DNA of 64,000 nucleotides from Escherichia coli (GTDB lineage Bacteria > Pseudomonadota > Gammaproteobacteria > Enterobacterales > Enterobacteriaceae): the NCBI RefSeq assembly GCF_044324785.1, contig NZ_CP172127.1. One strand, given 5' to 3'. The position numbers were made by a program, and so were the translations under genes. The notes beneath the pieces were generated by a model. That model was given only the letters and a program-made list of their open reading frames with translations, did not search any database and was not told the origin of the DNA. This document shows, one piece after another, positions 4,311 to 52,905 of this stretch. Positions within the stretch are counted from its first letter, which is position 1, and each line of letters starts with the position of its first letter.

Positions 4311-4589
4311 TACCGTTGTCTCTCGTCCAGGTTTACTCCTGATAGAAAGTCATCGGCACTTGACGGTAATTACTTATGACCAAAAACCTCTTTGCGTCAC
4401 ATTTTTACAACAATTATGGCAGAGAAGAATAATGCCATTGGAATGAAGAGAGTAACGAATGGCTAAACCGAATGACGAAAAATTCTGGAAAACAGCACGC
4501 AATTTCGTCAAGTGATTATTTTCGTCCCTAAGGAAACCTCATAGGATGCCTGCGGGTGCCTGAGACTTTCTGTTTTCAGGCTAACCGGG

Positions 4590-4655
4590 AATCAGAAAGA
4601 CGAAGGCCCCGACCGATATTTCTATCAACCGAGGCCAACGAATGAACCAAGCAAT
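4590..4655 (-). ncRNA. sokB: Sok-type antisense RNA of the hokB locus (approximate boundaries)
   Basis: Minus-strand promoter-like TTGCCG-17nt-TAACAT overlapping the mokB start; hok/sok loci carry a short antisense RNA here; ends not determinable by eye. Confidence 0.35.
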
Positions 4656-4659
4656 TCAG

Positions 4660-4849
<190 letters not shown>

Positions 4850-5264: not shown

Positions 5265-5328
5265 CTTCCGATGTAGACCCGTATTCTTCGCCTGTACCAC
5301 GGGTCGGTTTTAGTACAGGCGTTTTCTT
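5265..5328 (+). ncRNA. rydC: Hfq-dependent small RNA RydC
   Basis: Sequence CTTCCGATGTAGACCCGTATTCTTCGCCTGTACCACGGGTCGGTTTTAGTACAGGCGTTTTCTT matches RydC as I recall it; TATAAT -10 at 5254-5259; terminal hairpin plus U-tract; ydcA/cybB spacer as in K-12. Confidence 0.8.
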
Positions 5329-37343: not shown

Positions 37344-40300
37344 ATGATTACTATTGACGGTAATGGCGCGGTTGCTTCGGTGGCGTTTCGCACCAGTGAA
37401 GTTATCGCCATCTACCCTATTACCCCCAGTTCCACGATGGCAGAACAGGCTGATGCATGGGCCGGAAACGGCTTGAAAAACGTCTGGGGAGACACACCAC
37501 GCGTGGTTGAAATGCAGTCGGAAGCAGGTGCTATCGCTACCGTGCATGGCGCTTTGCAGACGGGTGCCCTTTCAACATCGTTTACGTCATCGCAGGGTTT
37601 GCTGCTGATGATCCCGACGCTGTACAAACTGGCAGGCGAACTCACACCGTTTGTCCTACATGTAGCGGCACGTACCGTTGCCACACATGCACTCTCTATT
37701 TTTGGCGATCATTCCGACGTCATGGCGGTGCGCCAGACGGGTTGCGCGATGTTGTGTGCGGCAAACGTCCAGGAAGCGCAAGACTTTGCTCTCATTTCGC
37801 ACATCGCGACGCTGAAAAGCCGCGTGCCATTTATTCATTTCTTTGATGGTTTCCGCACGTCCCACGAAATCAATAAAATTGTCCCGCTGGCCGATGACAC
37901 GATTCTTGATCTCATGCCGCAGGCCGAAATTGATGCTCATCGCGCCCGGGCACTCAACCCGGAACATCCGGTGATCCGCGGTACGTCCGCCAATCCTGAC
38001 ACTTATTTCCAGTCTCGCGAAGCCACCAACCCCTGGTACAACGCGGTCTATGACCATGTTGAGCAGGCGATGAATGATTTCGCTGCCGCGACAGGTCGTC
38101 AGTATCAGCCGTTTGAGTATTACGGGCATCCGCAAGCTGAACGAGTGATTATCCTGATGGGCTCAGCCATTGGCACCTGTGAAGAAGTGGTTGATGAATT
38201 GCTAACCCGTGGCGAAAAAGTCGGCGTGCTGAAAATTCGCCTGTACCGCCCCTTCTCAGCCAAACACTTGCTACAAGCTCTGCCGGGATCCGTACGCAGC
38301 GTGGCGGTACTGGACAGAACCAAAGAACCCGGTGCCCAGGCAGAACCGCTCTATCTGGATGTGATGACCGCACTGGCAGAAGCCTTTAATAATGGCGAGC
38401 GCGAAACCCTGCCCCGTGTCATTGGTGGGCGCTATGGTCTTTCATCCAAAGAATTTGGCCCGGACTGTGTACTGGCGGTATTTGCCGAGCTCAACGCGGC
38501 TAAACCGAAAGCGCGCTTTACGGTTGGTATTTACGATGATGTGACCAATCTGTCACTGCCGTTGCCGGAAAACACCCTGCCAAACTCGGCGAAACTTGAA
38601 GCCTTGTTTTATGGCCTTGGTAGTGATGGCAGCGTTTCCGCGACCAAAAACAATATCAAGATTATCGGTAATTCCACGCCGTGGTACGCACAGGGCTATT
38701 TTGTTTACGACTCCAAAAAGGCGGGCGGCCTGACGGTTTCTCACCTTCGCGTGAGCGAGCAGCCGATTCGTTCCGCTTATCTCATTTCCCAGGCTGATTT
38801 TGTTGGCTGCCACCAGTTGCAGTTTATCGATAAATATCAGATGGTTGAACGTTTAAAACCTAGCGGCATTTTCCTGCTCAACACGCCGTACAGCGCAGAT
38901 GAAGTGTGGTCGCGCTTGCCGCAGGAAGTTCAGGCCGTGTTAAACCAGAAAAAAGCGCGCTTCTATGTGATTAACGCGGCGAAAATCGCCCGCGAATGTG
39001 GCCTGGCGGCCCGTATTAATACCGTCATGCAGATGGCTTTTTTCCATCTGACGCAAATTCTGCCTGGCGATAGCGCCCTCGCAGAATTGCAGGGTGCGAT
39101 TGCCAAAAGTTACAGTAGCAAAGGTCAGGATCTGGTGGAGCGCAACTGGCAGGCTCTGGCGCTGGCGCGTGAATCCGTAGAAGAAGTTCCGTTGCAGCCG
39201 GTTAATCCGCACAGCGCCAATCGACCGCCTGTGGTTTCCGATGCCGCTCCTGATTTCGTGAAAACCGTTACCGCGGCGATGCTCGCCGGGCTTGGTGATG
39301 CCCTCCCCGTTTCGGCGCTGCCGCCAGACGGCACCTGGCCGATGGGCACCACGCGCTGGGAAAAACGCAATATCGCCGAAGAGATCCCCATCTGGAAAGA
39401 GGAACTCTGTACCCAATGTAACCACTGCGTCGCCGCTTGCCCACACTCAGCTATTCGCGCAAAAGTGGTACCGCCTGAAGCGATGGAAAACGCCCCTGCC
39501 AGCCTGCATTCGCTGGATGTGAAATCGCGTGATATGCGCGGGCAGAAATATGTCTTGCAGGTGGCACCGGAAGATTGCACCGGCTGTAACCTGTGCGTCG
39601 AAGTTTGCCCGGCGAAAGACCGTCAGAATCCAGAGATTAAAGCCATCAATATGATGTCGCGCCTGGAACATGTCGAAGAAGAGAAAATCAATTACGATTT
39701 CTTCCTCAACCTGCCAGAAATCGACCGTAGCAAACTGGAACGTATTGATATTCGTACATCGCAGCTGATTACACCGCTGTTTGAATATTCAGGTGCTTGC
39801 TCCGGTTGTGGCGAGACGCCGTATATTAAATTGCTGACTCAGCTCTATGGCGACCGGATGTTGATCGCTAACGCCACGGGCTGTTCTTCAATTTATGGCG
39901 GTAACCTGCCCTCTACACCGTATACTACCGATGCCAACGGTCGAGGACCGGCATGGGCGAACTCGCTGTTTGAAGATAACGCCGAATTTGGCCTTGGTTT
40001 CCGCCTGACGGTCGATCAACACCGTGTCCGCGTGCTGCGTCTGCTGGATCAATTTGCCGATAAAATCCCGGCTGAATTACTAACTGCGTTGAAATCAGAC
40101 GCCACGCCAGAGGTTCGTCGTGAACAGGTTGCAGCTTTACGCCAGCAACTCAAAGATGTTGCCGAAGCACATGAACTGCTACGTGACGCAGATGCGCTGG
40201 TGGAAAAATCAATCTGGCTGATTGGCGGCGACGGCTGGGCTTACGATATCGGCTTTGGCGGTTTGGATCATGTATTGAGTTTGACAGAAAACGTCAACAT

Positions 40301-40868
40301 TCTGGTGCTGGATACGCAATGCTATTCCAACACCGGTGGTCAGGCGTCGAAAGCGACACCGCTGGGTGCAGTAACTAAGTTCGGCGAGCACGGCAAACGT
40401 AAAGCGCGTAAAGATCTTGGCGTCAGTATGATGATGTACGGTCATGTTTATGTGGCGCAGATTTCTCTCGGCGCGCAGCTCAACCAGACGGTGAAAGCGA
40501 TTCAGGAAGCGGAAGCGTATCCGGGGCCATCGCTGATCATCGCTTATAGCCCCTGTGAAGAGCATGGTTACGATCTGGCACTCAGTCACGACCAGATGCG
40601 CCAACTCACTGCTACCGGCTTCTGGCCGCTATATCGCTTTGATCCGCGTCGTGCCGATGAAGGCAAACTGCCGCTGGCGCTGGATTCACGCCCGCCGTCA
40701 GAAGCACTGGAAGAAACGTTACTTCATGAGCAGCGTTTCCGTCGTCTGAATTCGCTGCAGCCAGAAGTGGCAGAACAGTTATGGAAAGATGCTGCAGCTG
40801 ATTTGCAAAAACGCTATGACTTCCTGGCACAAATGGCCGGAAAAGCGGAAAAAAGCAACACCGATTAA
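37344..40868 (+). CDS. ydbK: pyruvate:flavodoxin/ferredoxin oxidoreductase (PFOR)
   Basis: 1174-aa ORF with two 4Fe-4S ferredoxin motifs (CTQCNHCVAACP, CTGCNLCVEVCP) and TPP-binding region (GGDGWAYDIGFGG). Confidence 0.95.
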   Translation: MITIDGNGAVASVAFRTSEVIAIYPITPSSTMAEQADAWAGNGLKNVWGDTPRVVEMQSEAGAIATVHGALQTGALSTSFTSSQGLLLMIPTLYKLAGELTPFVLHVAARTVATHALSIFGDHSDVMAVRQTGCAMLCAANVQEAQDFALISHIATLKSRVPFIHFFDGFRTSHEINKIVPLADDTILDLMPQAEIDAHRARALNPEHPVIRGTSANPDTYFQSREATNPWYNAVYDHVEQAMNDFAAATGRQYQPFEYYGHPQAERVIILMGSAIGTCEEVVDELLTRGEKVGVLKIRLYRPFSAKHLLQALPGSVRSVAVLDRTKEPGAQAEPLYLDVMTALAEAFNNGERETLPRVIGGRYGLSSKEFGPDCVLAVFAELNAAKPKARFTVGIYDDVTNLSLPLPENTLPNSAKLEALFYGLGSDGSVSATKNNIKIIGNSTPWYAQGYFVYDSKKAGGLTVSHLRVSEQPIRSAYLISQADFVGCHQLQFIDKYQMVERLKPSGIFLLNTPYSADEVWSRLPQEVQAVLNQKKARFYVINAAKIARECGLAARINTVMQMAFFHLTQILPGDSALAELQGAIAKSYSSKGQDLVERNWQALALARESVEEVPLQPVNPHSANRPPVVSDAAPDFVKTVTAAMLAGLGDALPVSALPPDGTWPMGTTRWEKRNIAEEIPIWKEELCTQCNHCVAACPHSAIRAKVVPPEAMENAPASLHSLDVKSRDMRGQKYVLQVAPEDCTGCNLCVEVCPAKDRQNPEIKAINMMSRLEHVEEEKINYDFFLNLPEIDRSKLERIDIRTSQLITPLFEYSGACSGCGETPYIKLLTQLYGDRMLIANATGCSSIYGGNLPSTPYTTDANGRGPAWANSLFEDNAEFGLGFRLTVDQHRVRVLRLLDQFADKIPAELLTALKSDATPEVRREQVAALRQQLKDVAEAHELLRDADALVEKSIWLIGGDGWAYDIGFGGLDHVLSLTENVNILVLDTQCYSNTGGQASKATPLGAVTKFGEHGKRKARKDLGVSMMMYGHVYVAQISLGAQLNQTVKAIQEAEAYPGPSLIIAYSPCEEHGYDLALSHDQMRQLTATGFWPLYRFDPRRADEGKLPLALDSRPPSEALEETLLHEQRFRRLNSLQPEVAEQLWKDAAADLQKRYDFLAQMAGKAEKSNTD

Positions 40869-40896
40869 ATGTTCTGGATAAGAATTATCCAATTCT

Positions 40897-41006
40897 AAAA
40901 AAAAGCCCGAACGACTGTTCGGGCTTGTCTTTTTATATGTTGGAAAATCAGTGGCAATGCAATGGCCCAACAGAAAATAAAATCTGTGACAATAAAGGCA
41001 TATAAC
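40897..41006 (-). ncRNA. micC: small RNA MicC (repressor of ompC/ompD mRNAs)
   Basis: Minus strand reads GTTATATGCCTTTATTGTCACAGATTTTATTTTCTGTTGGGCCATTGCATTGCCACTGATTTTCC...AAGCCCGAACAGTCGTTCGGGCTTTTTTTT, matching MicC; ydbK/ompN spacer; its hairpin doubles as ydbK terminator. Confidence 0.85.
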
Positions 41007-41233
41007 CCGCGCAGAATAACGTATAGCAAATTAAAAGTATAATTTTTATTTTGTATGTATTATCTCCAATACATTCACCAGACTTATTATCATTTCAGAA
41101 GAATTATTTGATTAAGGTTTTACTTAAGGCGTAACAAATAATATTTATCGGCTAACTGAACTTCTCCTTTAGGATGTTTTCACTCCCCGAAATGGGGATA
41201 AAAGGCAAATAAAATAACTAAAGGATTTATTCA

Positions 41234-42367
41234 ATGAAAAGCAAAGTACTGGCACTTTTAATTCCTGCCCTGCTCGCCGCAGGTGCTGCACATGCAGCCG
41301 AAGTTTATAATAAAGACGGCAACAAATTAGATCTGTATGGCAAAGTTGATGGCCTGCATTATTTTTCTGATAATTCAGCGAAAGATGGCGACCAGAGCTA
41401 TGCGCGTCTGGGTTTTAAAGGCGAAACCCAAATTAACGATCAACTAACTGGCTACGGTCAATGGGAATACAATATTCAGGCAAACAACACTGAATCCTCA
41501 AAAAACCAGTCATGGACCCGTCTGGCATTTGCCGGATTGAAATTTGCAGATTACGGTTCTTTCGATTACGGACGTAATTATGGCGTAATGTACGACATCG
41601 AAGGCTGGACCGATATGCTGCCTGAATTTGGCGGTGACTCTTATACCAATGCAGACAACTTTATGACTGGTCGAGCCAATGGCGTCGCGACTTATCGTAA
41701 TACTGATTTCTTCGGTCTGGTAAATGGTCTGAACTTCGCGGTGCAGTATCAAGGTAACAACGAAGGTGCCAGTAATGGTCAGGAAGGCACCAACAACGGA
41801 CGTGATGTTCGCCATGAAAACGGTGACGGCTGGGGTCTTTCCACAACATATGATTTAGGCATGGGCTTTAGCGCTGGTGCGGCATACACCTCTTCTGACC
41901 GCACCAATGACCAGGTTAACCATACTGCGGCGGGTGGTGATAAAGCAGACGCATGGACTGCTGGGCTAAAATACGATGCTAACAATATTTACCTGGCAAC
42001 CATGTATTCAGAAACGCGTAATATGACCCCGTTTGGCGACAGCGATTATGCTGTTGCAAACAAAACCCAGAACTTTGAAGTTACTGCACAGTACCAGTTT
42101 GATTTTGGTCTGCGTCCGGCAGTCTCTTTCCTGATGTCTAAAGGCCGTGACCTGCACGCTGCCGGTGGTGCAGACAACCCGGCAGGTGTTGATGATAAAG
42201 ATCTGGTTAAATACGCCGATGTTGGCGCGACTTACTATTTCAACAAAAATATGTCCACCTACGTTGACTATAAAATCAACCTGTTGGATGAAGATGACAG
42301 CTTCTACGCTGCCAACGGCATCTCTACCGATGATATTGTCGCTTTAGGTCTGGTTTATCAGTTCTAA
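41234..42367 (+). CDS. ompN: outer-membrane porin OmpN
   Basis: 377-aa general porin with signal peptide and C-terminal YQF; divergent from micC. Confidence 0.9.
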
Positions 42368-42426: not shown

Positions 42427-42942
<516 letters not shown>

Positions 42943-42960
42943 CACTAACGCCCGCACATT

Positions 42961-42985
42961 GCTGCGGGCTTTTTGATTCATTTCG
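42961..42985 (+). terminator. rho-independent terminator of uspF
   Basis: CCCGCA-CATTGC-TGCGGG hairpin plus CTTTTT. Confidence 0.75.
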
Positions 42986-43117
42986 CAAATGTGCTGACAT
43001 TTTCCCCTCTAATCCGTACCATACACGCCACTGTTTTTATATCAGATTTCTTATGCTGGGCATTCCGGCATGACGCATACTCTTCTGATGCCATATAACG
43101 AATTGAGTCGCTTTTAA

Positions 43118-44053
43118 ATGTCGCAAAATCAAGAAATTAGTAAGAAAGAACAATACAACCTGAACAAATTACAAAAACGTCTGCGTCGTAACGTGGGCGA
43201 AGCCATTGCTGACTTCAATATGATTGAAGAAGGCGATCGCATCATGGTTTGCCTCTCCGGGGGTAAAGACAGCTATACCATGCTGGAGATTCTGCGCAAT
43301 TTGCAGCAAAGCGCGCCAATCAATTTTTCGCTGGTGGCTGTTAACCTCGATCAAAAGCAACCGGGCTTCCCGGAACACGTTCTGCCCGAGTATCTTGAAA
43401 AGCTGGGCGTTGAGTACAAGATTGTTGAAGAGAACACTTACGGTATCGTGAAAGAGAAAATTCCAGAGGGCAAAACCACTTGCTCACTGTGTTCTCGCCT
43501 GCGTCGCGGTATCCTTTATCGTACCGCAACGGAACTAGGGGCGACGAAGATCGCACTGGGTCACCATCGTGACGATATCCTGCAAACGCTGTTCTTAAAT
43601 ATGTTCTACGGTGGCAAGATGAAAGGTATGCCTCCGAAACTGATGAGCGATGATGGCAAACATATCGTGATTCGTCCGCTGGCCTACTGCCGCGAGAAAG
43701 ATATTCAGCGCTTTGCCGATGCAAAAGCGTTCCCGATTATTCCGTGCAACCTGTGCGGTTCACAGCCTAACCTGCAACGTCAGGTAATTGCTGACATGTT
43801 GCGTGACTGGGATAAACGTTATCCGGGGCGTATCGAGACGATGTTCAGCGCAATGCAGAATGTGGTGCCGTCGCATCTGTGCGATACCAACCTGTTCGAT
43901 TTCAAAGGCATTACCCACGGTTCTGAAGTGGTTAACGGGGGTGATCTGGCGTTTGATCGCGAAGAGATCCCACTACAACCGGCGGGCTGGCAGCCAGAAG
44001 AAGATGAAAATCAGTTGGATGAGTTACGACTGAATGTGGTTGAAGTGAAATAA
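43118..44053 (+). CDS. ttcA: tRNA-cytidine(32) 2-sulfurtransferase
   Basis: 311-aa ORF with PP-loop SGGKDS and CxxC motifs; N-terminus [19 protein letters not shown]. Confidence 0.9.
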
Positions 44054-44060
44054 CCAGGAT

Positions 44061-44135
44061 AGCGCCCGATGCGCAAGCGTATCGGGCTACTCTTATGGAG
44101 GCCGGATAAGACGCGGCCAGCGTCGCGTCCGGCAA
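44061..44135. repeat. REP/BIME-type extragenic palindromes
   Basis: GCCCGATGCGCAAGCGTATCGGGC and GCCGGATAAGACGCGGCCAGCGTCGCGTCCGGC palindromes between convergent ttcA and dbpA. Confidence 0.65.
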
Positions 44136-44181
44136 TCCCGGAGAAGATGTTTACTCTTGCACCCTGCGATTCAACATTTCA

Positions 44182-45555
44182 TTATTTTAATAACCGCACC
44201 CGGCACGTTTTTCCTTTAATCTTCCCGCCCTGCAACTGTTTCCATGCTTTATGAGCAACAGCCTGACGCACCGCGACATAGACATGCGCCGGATGCACGG
44301 CGATTTTGCCAATATCTGCGCCATCAAGCCCGATATCTCCTGTCAGCGCACCTAATACATCACCCGGGCGCATTTTGGCTTTTTTCCCGCCATCGATACA
44401 TAACGTTGCCATTTCGGCTTCCAGCGGCACAATGGAACTATTAACTGGCGGCGTTTGCCAGTTAAGTTTTATCTGCAACATGTCAGAAATGATATTGGCC
44501 CGCTGTGCTTCTTCCGGGGCACAGAAACTGATCGCCAGACCGCTATTTCCTGCACGCGCTGTGCGACCGATGCGATGTACATGAACTTCAGGATCCCACG
44601 CCAGCTCAAAGTTCACCACCAGCTCAAGCGATTTAATATCCAGACCTCGCGCAGCAACATCAGTCGCAACCAGTACACGGGCGCTACCGTTAGCAAAACG
44701 TACCAGGGTCTGATCGCGATCGCGTTGCTCCAGATCGCCGTGTAACGACAATGCACTTTGCCCTACTTCATTCAGCGCGTCGCAGACAGCCTGGCAATCT
44801 TTTTTGGTATTGCAAAACACCACACAAGAGGATGGCTGATGCAAGCTTAATAACCGTTGCAACAGAGGAATTTTGCCTTTACTGGATGTCTCATAAAATT
44901 GTTGTTCAATGGGTGGCAAAGCATCTGTTGAGTCAATTTCAATCGCCAAAGGATCGCGTTGCACTCGTCCGCTGATTGCGGCGATGGCTTCCGGCCAGGT
45001 TGCCGAAAACAGAAGCGTCTGTCGAGATGCAGGCGCAAAACGGATGACATCATCAATGGCATCGCTAAATCCCATATCCAGCATGCGGTCGGCCTCATCC
45101 ATCACCAAAGTATTCAGCGCATCCAGTGATACCGTGCCTTTTTGCAAGTGATCCAGCAAACGACCCGGCGTTGCCACGATAATATGCGGCGCATGTTGCA
45201 ACGAATCACGCTGCAAACCGAACGGTTGACCACCGCACAACGTCAAAATTTTGGTATTTGGCAGAAAACGCGCCAACCGACGCAATTCACCTGCCACCTG
45301 ATCCGCCAGTTCACGCGTAGGACACAGCACTAAAGCCTGGGTTTGAAATAGCGACGCATCAATTTGCTGTAACAAGCCGAGGCCAAAAGCCGCCGTTTTG
45401 CCGCTGCCGGTTTTCGCCTGCACGCGAACATCTTTTCCGGCAAGGATCGCCGGAAGCGCGGCGGCCTGCACCGGCGTCATGGTTAAATAACCCAACTCAT
45501 TAAGGTTCGTGAGTTGGGCGGGAGGCAAAACATTCAGGGTAGAAAAAGCGGTCAC
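44182..45555 (-). CDS. dbpA: ATP-dependent 23S rRNA-specific DEAD-box helicase
   Basis: 457-aa ORF with Walker A (AKTGSGKTAAF), DEAD box (VMDEAD), SAT and HRIGRTAR motifs; GTG start. Confidence 0.9.
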   Translation of the reverse strand: MTAFSTLNVLPPAQLTNLNELGYLTMTPVQAAALPAILAGKDVRVQAKTGSGKTAAFGLGLLQQIDASLFQTQALVLCPTRELADQVAGELRRLARFLPNTKILTLCGGQPFGLQRDSLQHAPHIIVATPGRLLDHLQKGTVSLDALNTLVMDEADRMLDMGFSDAIDDVIRFAPASRQTLLFSATWPEAIAAISGRVQRDPLAIEIDSTDALPPIEQQFYETSSKGKIPLLQRLLSLHQPSSCVVFCNTKKDCQAVCDALNEVGQSALSLHGDLEQRDRDQTLVRFANGSARVLVATDVAARGLDIKSLELVVNFELAWDPEVHVHRIGRTARAGNSGLAISFCAPEEAQRANIISDMLQIKLNWQTPPVNSSIVPLEAEMATLCIDGGKKAKMRPGDVLGALTGDIGLDGADIGKIAVHPAHVYVAVRQAVAHKAWKQLQGGKIKGKTCRVRLLK

Positions 45556-45584
45556 AATCTATTCTCGTGGTCATCGACGCAAAG

Positions 45585-45758
45585 TTAGCAGGCGCGTATC
45601 CTCGCAGATCTACGCTCACGATGCGACAATTTAATCGGTTCTTCATCGGGTGGTGGGTCAGGCATGGGTTGCGGGCGAGGGATTGGATCGGGCACAGGAA
45701 CAGGATCGCCAGGAATCGGTTCAGGGACAGGAATTTGCAAATAAATAAGTGTCGTCAT
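45585..45758 (-). CDS. hypothetical proline-rich small protein (57 aa)
   Basis: ATG preceded by GGAGGG SD at 5-nt spacing; product MTTLIYLQIPVPEPIPGDPVPVPDPIPRPQPMPDPPPDEEPIKLSHRERRSARIRAC; stop 29 nt before dbpA start; below the track cutoff. Confidence 0.45.
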   Translation of the reverse strand: MTTLIYLQIPVPEPIPGDPVPVPDPIPRPQPMPDPPPDEEPIKLSHRERRSARIRAC

Positions 45759-45815
45759 ATTTCCCTCCGGTCATTGGGTGGACTCTTAAAGGGTAGACGC
45801 TGATAAATAACAGGC

Positions 45816-45937
45816 AAAAAAAAGCCGACTCATCAAAGTCGGCGTCGTACGAATCAATTGTGCTATGCAGTAATTCAAAAAAGGAAGTAAGACAATATGG
45901 AGCGCAACGCCCATCGCTTGACGTTGCATTCACCTGC
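45816..45937 (-). ncRNA. fnrS: FNR-activated small RNA FnrS
   Basis: Minus strand reads GCAGGTGAATGCAACGTCAAGCGATGGGCGTTGCGCTCCATATTGTCTTACTTCC...GAGTCGGCTTTTTTTT, matching FnrS; zntB/dbpA spacer as in K-12. Confidence 0.85.
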
Positions 45938-45972
45938 AAGGGAGATATTGCCCTGAATGGGTAGAGAGTTTA

Positions 45973-45986
45973 TTGACTTCGCTCAA
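45973..45986. promoter_or_regulatory. FNR binding site of the fnrS promoter
   Basis: TTGAC-TTCG-CTCAA (consensus TTGAT-N4-ATCAA) centred about 42 bp upstream of the inferred FnrS 5' end, i.e. class II spacing. Confidence 0.7.
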
Positions 45987-46032
45987 ACTTTGCGGCGTTT
46001 TTGTATACAGACAGCCGGAAAAATTGCTTTTG

Positions 46033-47037
<1,005 letters not shown>

Positions 47038-47270
47038 TTATTTTGTAGTCTAGCCTTCTGGCCCTGTTACGCAACATCTCATCACCCCATTACCCTGAAA
47101 TGATTAATAAAATTCTGTCTAAATTGAATACAAAAAGCAAAATGCTTTTCCATATACAAACCGTGTGAAGTGTTAAATAGCGTCTATCATTATCAGAATT
47201 ATCTGATCATATGACGTGGCTTTTTTGCGATCGGATAGCAACAAAAATTGATAAAAATAATGGGATCTCA

Positions 47271-49087: not shown

Positions 49088-49281
49088 GTAACCTCCTATG
49101 CACCTTCACACGTCGTGATTCAGACGGGTTAATTGTTCATACTTACTGCATCGTTCCCTTCACAGATTGAAACAATACTCTACTTCATACCTGTGAGTAT
49201 CTGCGCAGGCGGGGCATTTTATACTAGCCTGTTAGCAGTATCGAACAGTTTAGCCCGAGTTTAATTCAGCACAGGCTCCGA

Positions 49282-50796
49282 TCAGGATGATTTATTCATA
49301 GCAGGAACCAACAAAAATGCGATAAATAACAGACCACTGATTAGCAGAAAGGTATCCGAAAATGCCATAGTTTGCGCCTCCCTCAGCATCAATTGACTTA
49401 ATAATTTGGTTGAAGCCAGTATTTCCGATGTCTGGTCACTTCCACTGCGATTAAAAAACAAAGCACTTCTGGAAATGAAGTCATTCACCGTATGGGGAAC
49501 AGAAACCATTTTTTCACCCATTCTCGAAAAATGAAAATTAGTTCGATTATTGAGAATAGAGCCACACAGGGCAATACCAATCGCGCCCCCAAGATTACGT
49601 GTTAAATTAAATACACCAGAGGCTAACTTCAGCCGTTCTTTTGGAATTCCCCCCAGCGTTAATGTTACGATGGGGGCCATCGCAAACTGCTGCGAAATCC
49701 CTCTAATTGCCTGTGGAAACAGTAACTCCTGCCATCCCCATTCGTGGGTTATCGGGGTAAAAAGATACATTGAAAACACAAATCCACCCAGCCCCGCCAT
49801 CAACAGCCATCGCAGATTTATTTTTTTACTTAACCAGAAGTAAAAGGGAACAGAAAATAACTGGAAAATACCTGTTGTGCAAACGGCAAAACCTATCTCT
49901 TCGGCATTTAATCCGCGAACCTGCCCCAAAAACACAGGTATTAAATATACAGTAGAGAATATCCCAACCCCTCCAGAAAAAGAAAAAAAACATCCCAGCG
50001 TGAAATTTTTATCCTTAAAAGCATGAAGATCCATTATCGGATTGGATATTGTAAGTGTACGCACAGCAAATAAAATAAAACTCACCAATGCCAGAACTGA
50101 TGTCAGCAAAATAGTATTATCATCCAGCCATCCCCAGCGCGCTCCTTCTTCAACGGTATATTCCAGACATCCCAGTGTCATGGCCAACAGGATAATACTC
50201 GGATAATCAGCAACTTTCAGTAAAGAGAGATCAGGTTTATCAAAATTAACCAGAAAAGGAATACTCAAAACTAAATATATGCCAGGTAATATATTGATAT
50301 AAAATAGCCATCGCCAGTCGAGATTATCAGTGATCCAGCCCCCCAGAGTTGGCCCTAGCGTCGGTGACAGTGAGGCCAGCGCACTGACTACCGCAGCAGC
50401 CAACCCCAGCTCTTTACCCTGGTAATAAATAAACGCCGTCGTGAAAACTAAAGGGATCATGGATGCGCCAGCCGCTCCCTGTAAAGCACGAAACAAAATC
50501 ATGATCTGAATATTCCATGCAAGTCCACACGCGATACTCATTAAAGTAAATATTCCCGCGGATAGAGTAAAAAGCCAACGAGTGGAAAATACCCGTGACA
50601 GCCACCCAGAGAGCGGAATAACAATAATCTCAGCAATTAAATAGCTGGTCTGAAGCCAGGCCATTTCGTCTTTACCTGCGGACAGACCACCACCTATTTC
50701 ATTTAGGGATGACGATACAATTTGAATATCAAGCTGAGCAATAAATAATCCCATACACATACTGGCGAAAGCAATATGTTTACGCATAGACATCAT
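49282..50796 (-). CDS. MFS transporter, DHA2 (EmrB/QacA-like, 14-TMS) family
   Basis: 504-aa hydrophobic ORF; start overlaps the upstream MFP gene stop (ATGA); visibly AT-rich; not part of the K-12 gene order I recall. Confidence 0.75.
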   Translation of the reverse strand: MMSMRKHIAFASMCMGLFIAQLDIQIVSSSLNEIGGGLSAGKDEMAWLQTSYLIAEIIVIPLSGWLSRVFSTRWLFTLSAGIFTLMSIACGLAWNIQIMILFRALQGAAGASMIPLVFTTAFIYYQGKELGLAAAVVSALASLSPTLGPTLGGWITDNLDWRWLFYINILPGIYLVLSIPFLVNFDKPDLSLLKVADYPSIILLAMTLGCLEYTVEEGARWGWLDDNTILLTSVLALVSFILFAVRTLTISNPIMDLHAFKDKNFTLGCFFSFSGGVGIFSTVYLIPVFLGQVRGLNAEEIGFAVCTTGIFQLFSVPFYFWLSKKINLRWLLMAGLGGFVFSMYLFTPITHEWGWQELLFPQAIRGISQQFAMAPIVTLTLGGIPKERLKLASGVFNLTRNLGGAIGIALCGSILNNRTNFHFSRMGEKMVSVPHTVNDFISRSALFFNRSGSDQTSEILASTKLLSQLMLREAQTMAFSDTFLLISGLLFIAFLLVPAMNKSS

Positions 50797-51824
50797 CTCT
50801 CATCAACACTGACGGTGACGGACAGTCCCGGGCGAAGAAGTTGCTTTAATTCCTTTGCGTCGTCAAATGCAATCCGTACCGGGACACGCTGAACAATTTT
50901 GGTGAAATTGCCAGTGGCATTTTCTATCGGAATCAAGCTGAAACTGGCTCCTGTCGCTGGGGAAAGGCTTTCAATGTGACCGTGAAACACTTCCCCTTTG
51001 AGAATATCAGCACGGATCTCAGCCTTCATTCCTGGCTTCATTCCCGCTATTTGGTTTTCTTTATAATTTGCATCAACCCACAACTCACTGACTGGTACTA
51101 GTGAAACTAACGATGTGCCGCCTTCCACCCAACTGCCTGTATGGGCGCTGCGGTTTGCGACAATGCCATCAATCGGCGCACGAACAAGGGTATATTCCAG
51201 ATCCAGTAGTGCCTGAGTCAAAGCGGCCTGAACTTCTTCGATACTTGCACGTACGTTTTCTTCCTGAGCAGATAAAACTGCCAGCCGTTGCTTCTCCACC
51301 ATGAAATCGTTCGCGGCTTTGCGCTCCTTTGCTGCGACCTGCTGGTAGTCAAACCTGGCGTTATCAATAATTTGTTGCGATATTGCCGCTGATTGTGCGA
51401 GTTTTTCATAACGTTCAGTATCTCGCAGGCGCTTTTGCTCCTCATGTTTTACTGCCTGCCATGTTTCACTGGCACTTTGAATTATCGACTGCTGCATCGC
51501 AATAGTGGCTTGAATGCTTTCGAGATTGGCTTTGCTACTTTTTATTTTTGCCTCAAGCCTGGCGACATTTGCACGATAATCCCGATCATCGAGACGCAGG
51601 ATAATATCGCCTTTTTTTACGCTCTGATTATCGCGCACCTCTATAGCAGAAATATAACCAGAAACTTTACTTGCCACCGTGGTGATATTACCACCAATGT
51701 AAGCATCATCCGTCGTCTGTATAAATCTTCCTTTGCTTACCCACCAGATAAAAAAGACAACGCCAGCCAAAATAATACCGATCGCTACCACCCCAATAAG
51801 CTGTTTTTTAGAAATTATCATCAC
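50793..51824 (-). CDS. HlyD/EmrA-family membrane fusion protein
   Basis: 343-aa ORF with N-terminal TM anchor, coiled-coil region and C-terminal beta-barrel-like region. Confidence 0.75.
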   Translation of the reverse strand: MMIISKKQLIGVVAIGIILAGVVFFIWWVSKGRFIQTTDDAYIGGNITTVASKVSGYISAIEVRDNQSVKKGDIILRLDDRDYRANVARLEAKIKSSKANLESIQATIAMQQSIIQSASETWQAVKHEEQKRLRDTERYEKLAQSAAISQQIIDNARFDYQQVAAKERKAANDFMVEKQRLAVLSAQEENVRASIEEVQAALTQALLDLEYTLVRAPIDGIVANRSAHTGSWVEGGTSLVSLVPVSELWVDANYKENQIAGMKPGMKAEIRADILKGEVFHGHIESLSPATGASFSLIPIENATGNFTKIVQRVPVRIAFDDAKELKQLLRPGLSVTVSVDER

Positions 51825-51917
51825 TCTTTACACCGTATATATCCGGAAACTTGCATTCGTCATATTTAAAATTTAACATGGCTTATTTGATGATTTCTGA
51901 CAAAATACCTACTGTAA

Positions 51918-52733
51918 ATGACAATCACACTGCAACCCAAAGCATCACCAGGGCATCACATTATCGGACTGGATTCGGAACATCTGAATGGAGGCACAGT
52001 TCCCTGGCATAAACATCTCTATGCCCAGTTGCTTTACCCGGCTGAAGGAGTCGTTCGTGTATGGGCTGGAGAAAGCGTCTGGCTAGTCCATGCCAGCAGC
52101 GCGCTTTGGCTGCCCCCACAAATGCCGCATAAGTTTGTTGCGACAGGCAACGTACTTTTAAAAACCGTACTGGTTTCAGAAGCGGAAAGTGAAACGCTGG
52201 GAAAAGTTTGCTTCATGACGGGTATTTCACCCCTGTTAAGAGAATTACTAATTGCAATTAACCAACTTCCACCGTCGCAAAGTACCACAGATAAACAACA
52301 GTTACGTTTTTCAGCCCTCGAGACACTGATACTTCAGGAAATAAAAATGGGGGTGAAAATGTCACTTGAACTCCCTTGGCCAAATGATGAGCGGCTACAG
52401 CAGCTTTGTGAGAATTTGCTAAACAACCAAGGGTATCTACCAACACTGGATAATCTAGCGGATAAAATTAACGTCAGTAGCCGTACACTCATGCGCTTAT
52501 TTGTTAAAGAGACGGGATTAACATTTCGCCACTGGGTTCAGCAAATGCACGTTATTTCTGCAGTGACGCTTCTTGATGATGGATATTCGTTGACCAAAAT
52601 TGCCCATCGTCTGGGCTATGCCTCAGCTGAATCGTTCGGCAATATGTTTAAGCGTCGAACGGGCTACTCGCCCGGTAAATTTACTCGTCGATTAACGATG
52701 CATGATTATGCAATCACAAGACAAATGATTTAA
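51918..52733 (+). CDS. AraC/XylS-family transcriptional regulator (cupin + HTH)
   Basis: 271-aa ORF; C-terminal AraC-type HTH (SRTLMRLFVKETGLTFRHWV...IAHRLGYASAESFGNMFKRRTGYSPGKF); divergent from the MFP-MFS pair, 93-bp shared promoter region. Confidence 0.75.
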   Translation: MTITLQPKASPGHHIIGLDSEHLNGGTVPWHKHLYAQLLYPAEGVVRVWAGESVWLVHASSALWLPPQMPHKFVATGNVLLKTVLVSEAESETLGKVCFMTGISPLLRELLIAINQLPPSQSTTDKQQLRFSALETLILQEIKMGVKMSLELPWPNDERLQQLCENLLNNQGYLPTLDNLADKINVSSRTLMRLFVKETGLTFRHWVQQMHVISAVTLLDDGYSLTKIAHRLGYASAESFGNMFKRRTGYSPGKFTRRLTMHDYAITRQMI

Positions 52734-52803: not shown

Positions 52804-52898
52804 ACCGGTCACCAGGACCCCAGGCCGGATTTAAGACGAGGATGCACTGCTGTGTGTACTGTAGAGTCTGGCGGATGTCGACAGACTCTATTTTTTTA
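52804..52898 (+). ncRNA. mcaS: small RNA McaS (IsrA)
   Basis: ACCGGTCACCAGGACCCCAGGCCGGATTTAAGACGAGGATGCACTGCTGTGTGTACTGTAGAGTCTGGCGGATGTCGACAGACTCTATTTTTTT matches McaS as I recall it; terminator hairpin plus U-tract; convergent with abgR. Confidence 0.8.
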
Positions 52899-52905
52899 TG
52901 CAGTT

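Follow-up and report, generated by a model that had tools for sequence, protein, structure and literature searches.

The uspF-ttcA junction of an Escherichia coli chromosome as an unoccupied attachment site of Rac-family prophages

In Escherichia coli K-12 the prophage Rac is inserted between ttcA and ttcC' (Liu et al. 2015, Sci Rep 5:16074, PMC4632033), and owing to the imperfect match of attL and attR its excision, whether natural or driven by XisR, leaves TtcA with four altered residues at the N-terminus (PMC4632033). Strains with no rac-like prophage at this locus, such as O103:H2 12009, UMN026 and S. flexneri 8401, have the N-terminus of the excision product TtcA', which these authors regard as the ancient form and which is outperformed by the lysogen form in the presence of carbenicillin (PMC4632033). 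The annotation of K-12 MG1655 gives the gene order ttcA (b1344), intR, xisR, ralR, recT, recE, kilR, racR and the rest of Rac, followed by the 51-bp pseudogene ttcC and then uspF, ompN and ydbK; the feature "cryptic prophage Rac" covers 1411899-1434958 (23,060 bp), in line with the original prediction that a Rac prophage of roughly 23 kb separates ttcA and uspF in this strain. In this strain the ttcA start codon and eight codons belong to the phage half of attL, the intR stop codon being 51 bp upstream, and the K-12 protein begins with MQENQQITKKEQYNL, which is of the phage type, MQENQQIT (Q2, E3, Q6 and T8).

Other Rac-like prophages (CP-933R, Sp10, Rac-SA53 and vB_EcoS-683R6) use the same ttcA site and are as such possible occupants of it rather than the site itself. 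An IntR-type integrase with 96-99% identity is found in a handful of phage-collection records, including Rac-SA53 (KU052037) and vB_EcoS-683R6.

We report that the 64-kb stretch of E. coli DNA analysed here (referred to as the window) has uspF and ttcA side by side, and we assign positions 42943-43167, with a probability that we put at roughly 97%, as the unoccupied chromosomal attB of Rac-family lambdoid prophages.

The uspF-ttcA locus and its intergenic region

According to the list of open reading frames, uspF (universal stress protein F) is intact and occupies 42508-42942 on the plus strand, encoding 144 amino acids. The list also gives an upstream GTG at 42436; we took the ATG at 42508 as the start since the 144-residue form matches K-12 UspF at 143 of 144 positions, and the protein matches the NCBIfam equivalog NF011581 over its full length (303.3 bits; cut-off 166). 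The ttcA gene (tRNA 2-thiocytidine(32) synthetase) starts with ATG and covers 43118-44053, also on the plus strand. Its 311-residue product is a full-length match to the equivalog NF007972 (513.6 bits; cut-off 272) and is identical to K-12 TtcA at 306 of 311 residues (98%), the differences being at residues 2, 3, 6, 8 and 290. Residue 290 (codon at 43985-43987), which has no connection with Rac and is the sole difference outside the att-encoded N-terminus, is Gly here and Cys in K-12. The two genes are preceded by ydbK/nifJ (37344-40868) and ompN (41234-42367), both on the plus strand, and followed by dbpA (44182-45555) and zntB (46033-47016), both on the minus strand. A GC-rich palindromic, REP-like sequence was noted by eye at 44055-44140, between the convergent ttcA and dbpA.

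The gap between uspF and ttcA (42943-43117) is exactly 175 bp, and no integrase, phage gene or substantial ORF was found in it, as had been anticipated from the first reading of this DNA (about 175 bp and free of phage genes). In a BLAST search with a 30-kb K-12 stretch as query, Rac DNA had no match anywhere in the 64-kb window, and neither integrase, excisionase nor other Rac genes were detected at the uspF-ttcA locus. Moreover, the syntenic annotated genomes carry only chromosomal genes, and no phage genes, around this site. The suggestion that Rac-borne functions are missing from the locus thus holds for the locus and for the window, and we limit it to these because Rac-like segments occur elsewhere in E. 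coli: they have a match in 5,397 of the 5,426 genomes, with a median of eight places per genome. These segments mostly sit in other lambdoid prophages, and elsewhere in the source genome prophages of this kind may well contribute genes resembling recET, kil or ral.

Directly 3' of uspF, at 42950-42975 on the plus strand, is a sequence resembling an intrinsic terminator, composed of the hairpin GCCCGCACATTGCTGCGGGC (42950-42969) and a TTTTT run. A consensus scan gave a stem of seven pairs, six of which are G-C, and neither K-12 nor any of four Rac-free strains shows a change in the hairpin; we consider it to be a putative terminator. Apart from two substitutions and one 1-bp indel, the 175-bp gap aligns with the K-12 uspF-ttcC sequence. 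It makes up the left, bacterial arm of attB, and the promoter and ribosome binding site native to ttcA presumably reside here. A sigma-70-like match at 42994-43022 (CTGACA-17-TACCAT) was tried as ttcA promoter and discarded as weak; two such matches were found with 2.4 expected by chance, and since this is no better than chance we claim no native ttcA promoter. Using Rfam, no match was obtained within the gap, and known small RNAs were found elsewhere in the window only, at their expected chromosomal places: sok of the hokB/sokB locus (4554-4705), RydC (5265-5328), MicC between ydbK and ompN (40889-41009), FnrS between dbpA/ynaL and zntB (45820-45937) and McaS (52804-52899).

The attB core and the N-terminus of TtcA

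Alignments place the attB region at 43118-43167 on the plus strand, within the first 17 codons of ttcA. It comprises a 26-bp core, AAGAAAGAACAATACAACCTGAACAA, at 43142-43167 (plus strand), which is exact and common to the window and both K-12 junctions, and an imperfect arm at 43118-43141 (plus strand), which differs at seven positions from the copy that the phage provides in K-12 attL. The end coordinate originally proposed for the empty site, 43160, falls inside this core, which however extends to 43167. While lysogens carry two copies of the core, and a single copy was used as the criterion for an unoccupied site, we found only one copy in the 64 kb, even when three mismatches were allowed (zero matches expected by chance).

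The original prediction called for an alignment with the attL and attR of K-12 Rac, and this alignment shows that the window has the left arm of attR joined to the right arm of attL. Specifically, in the three-way alignment the sequence from uspF through ATGTCGCAAAATCAAGAAATTAGT corresponds to the K-12 uspF-ttcC side, bar three small intergenic differences, and from the core onward it corresponds to the body of K-12 ttcA. The BLAST matches give the same picture: 40128-43167 matches the ompN/uspF/ttcC side and 43125-47066 the ttcA/dbpA/zntB side, and the two colinear matches overlap only in the 43-bp duplicated att segment (43125-43167), with no insert between them. The site is hence an attB, since it has a bacterial left arm, one core and a bacterial right arm. 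Being identical to sites known to be in use, 43142-43167 is predicted to be competent for IntR-mediated integration.

The annotated 26-nt att of Rac-SA53 aligns to the same positions, 43142-43167, and differs from the core of the window at three of 26 positions (GAGATA vs GAACAA). This "attP" was rejected as an independent attP and is effectively an attL core; the record begins inside ttcA and hence represents a prophage junction.

The N-terminus of TtcA encoded by the window is MSQNQEIS, i.e. of the non-lysogen type (TtcA'), which on the basis of the literature we take to be the ancestral form. That Rac provides K-12 TtcA with a different N-terminus, as stated in the original prediction, is borne out by the four differing residues, whose codons all lie on the phage arm. 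Because this arm holds the start codon and eight codons, expression of ttcA in a lysogen is necessarily driven by sequence brought in by the phage.

We propose that the site works as follows. The tyrosine integrase IntR of Rac-family phages recombines at the 26-bp core in ttcA codons 9-17, and the phage arm contributes a start codon plus a version of the first eight ttcA codons that diverges slightly from the bacterial one. A lysogen such as K-12 therefore makes TtcA with the phage-encoded MQENQQIT, with the original ttcA start staying beside uspF as the ttcC remnant. In the source genome nothing is integrated here, and uspF with its putative terminator is followed by the 175-bp region and the start of ttcA (MSQNQEIS) in their native form.

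Frequency and origin of the empty site in E. coli

To score the empty site we used a 965-bp query that runs from uspF into ttcA and includes 283 bp of the ttcA 5' end, and a genome was called empty when one contiguous place covered at least 80% of the query; an occupied site covers at most approximately 76%. The contiguous arrangement is present in 2,488 of 5,426 complete E. coli genomes, and the K-12 intR-ttcA junction (at least 86% coverage) in 2,909 of 5,426; in Rac-free genomes the latter query is matched by its 143 bp of ttcA alone. Together the two classes comprise 5,397 of the genomes, so that empty and occupied sites form a polymorphism of roughly 46:54, and the empty allele is ordinary in E. 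coli.

The number of finished genomes with this arrangement (2,488) also bears on whether the empty site could be an assembly artefact, in which a real prophage was lost by collapse across the duplicated att sequence. Such a collapse is a generic possibility for any repeat-flanked element, and we found no specific support for it here; the att duplication is imperfect and, at approximately 43-50 bp, too short to collapse an element of 20-50 kb. Moreover, a collapse would more likely keep the phage-type start of ttcA, and the window has a ttcC-type left arm and the non-lysogen N-terminus. We therefore regard an artefact as extremely improbable and continue to read the junction as a genuine attB.

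The locus had been described as the native Rac-free arrangement. Alignment and BLAST agree that it is free of Rac, but "native" is not provable, since precise excision by IntR and XisR regenerates exactly the same sequence (PMC4632033) and a site that was never occupied is on these grounds indistinguishable from a cured one. The site may thus once have held a Rac-like prophage and have been emptied by precise IntR/XisR-mediated excision, the junction being the scar. Natural and XisR-induced excision in K-12 gives exactly the TtcA' N-terminus (PMC4632033), and the finding that the occupied and empty states each account for about half of the E. coli genomes implies frequent gain and/or loss; however, the flanks hold no phage remnant, and an event that leaves no mark provides no positive evidence here. 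On balance we consider an excision at this site to be possible but rather unlikely.

Alternatively, an occupied site could have been replaced through homologous recombination with DNA of a Rac-free donor that brought in the empty allele. The window is mosaic, being nearly identical to strain N3 at 47-57 kb but having 5-14 mismatches to it in each 500 bp from 37.5 to 46.5 kb, and many unrelated strains share 99.9% identity with it in the 965 bp around the junction; both observations would fit an import. However, all three comparison genomes, including K-12, diverge little from the window at 42.5-43.0 kb, which is attributable to uspF and the intergenic region being conserved and not to an imported block. 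Divergence returns inside ttcA without clean recombination boundaries around the att site, and the mismatch-density profile against K-12, N3 and 120899, mosaic as it is, contains no import tract bracketing this site. This makes import improbable, more so than excision. Only tentatively, then, can it be suggested that a Rac-like prophage was lost recently in the source lineage, by excision or recombinational replacement, with TtcA reverting to TtcA'. If true, such a loss would have entailed the switch to TtcA' with its reported fitness effect under carbenicillin, and would be another case of a published phenomenon.

The surrounding window and comparison with known systems

Among the 5,426 complete E. 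coli genomes there is no close match to the whole window; the best is strain N3 (approximately 99% identical), and most of the others are 97.4-98.8% identical. The source would be a mosaic lineage missing from this set, or possibly a Shigella. Several features outside the att site were recorded. A 768-bp IS1 at 62692-63459 interrupts mppA (murein tripeptide-binding protein), which is intact in strains N3 and 120899; the element has 23-bp terminal inverted repeats (GGTGATGCTGCCAACTTACTGAT) and reading frames for InsA and InsB, and is flanked by a 9-bp target-site duplication, TACGCGCTT, at 62683-62691 and 63460-63468. On the minus strand, 23774-31459 is one uninterrupted ORF of 2,561 amino acids matching ydbA-type "beta strand repeat-containing / autotransporter" proteins, with internal tandem repeats of approximately 294 bp (off-diagonal BLAST matches spaced 294 bp). 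The gene is split or frameshifted in strain N3, and ydbA of K-12 is a pseudogene broken by IS2 and IS30. At approximately 31460-32440, the autotransporter gene comes straight after ydbL, an arrangement shared with N3, and the feaR-feaB-tynA-paa (phenylacetate/phenylethylamine) cluster, which adjoins ydbL in strain 120899 and also in K-12, is absent here. Finally, strain 120899 lacks, between smrA and abgR, a segment of approximately 3.6 kb (49098-52697); judging from the syntenic annotation of N3 it encodes a DHA2-family MFS efflux permease, an HlyD-family protein and an AraC-family regulator, and it ends approximately 100 bp before the McaS gene.

With respect to ttcA, our data indicate that the source strain is not a Rac lysogen at this gene and that its TtcA, with the N-terminus of the ancestral form, would be expressed from the upstream region native to the gene. 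The site would represent a free landing place for IntR-type lambdoid phages, including Rac-like phages unrelated to Stx such as Rac-SA53. The state of uspF-ttcA, a polymorphism near 50/50 in E. coli, is useful for strain typing; beyond annotation the finding is of little importance and we do not present it as a discovery.

Compared with the occupied site of K-12 MG1655, the window has the same order of ompN, uspF, ttcA, dbpA and zntB, an identical core and flanks that are approximately 98.2-98.4% identical, and it differs in that K-12 has 23 kb of Rac between two cores, a phage-encoded TtcA N-terminus and the ttcC remnant. The K-12 delta-rac derivative and the Rac-free O103:H2 strain 12009 have the same locus, 26-bp core, bacterial arms and TtcA' N-terminus as the window, and a 331-bp junction of the window is identical to that of O103:H2 str. 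12009. The empty uspF-ttcA site is accordingly already known, and we re-observe a published fact; relative to these two strains only the surroundings differ, the window belonging to a different, mosaic E. coli lineage.
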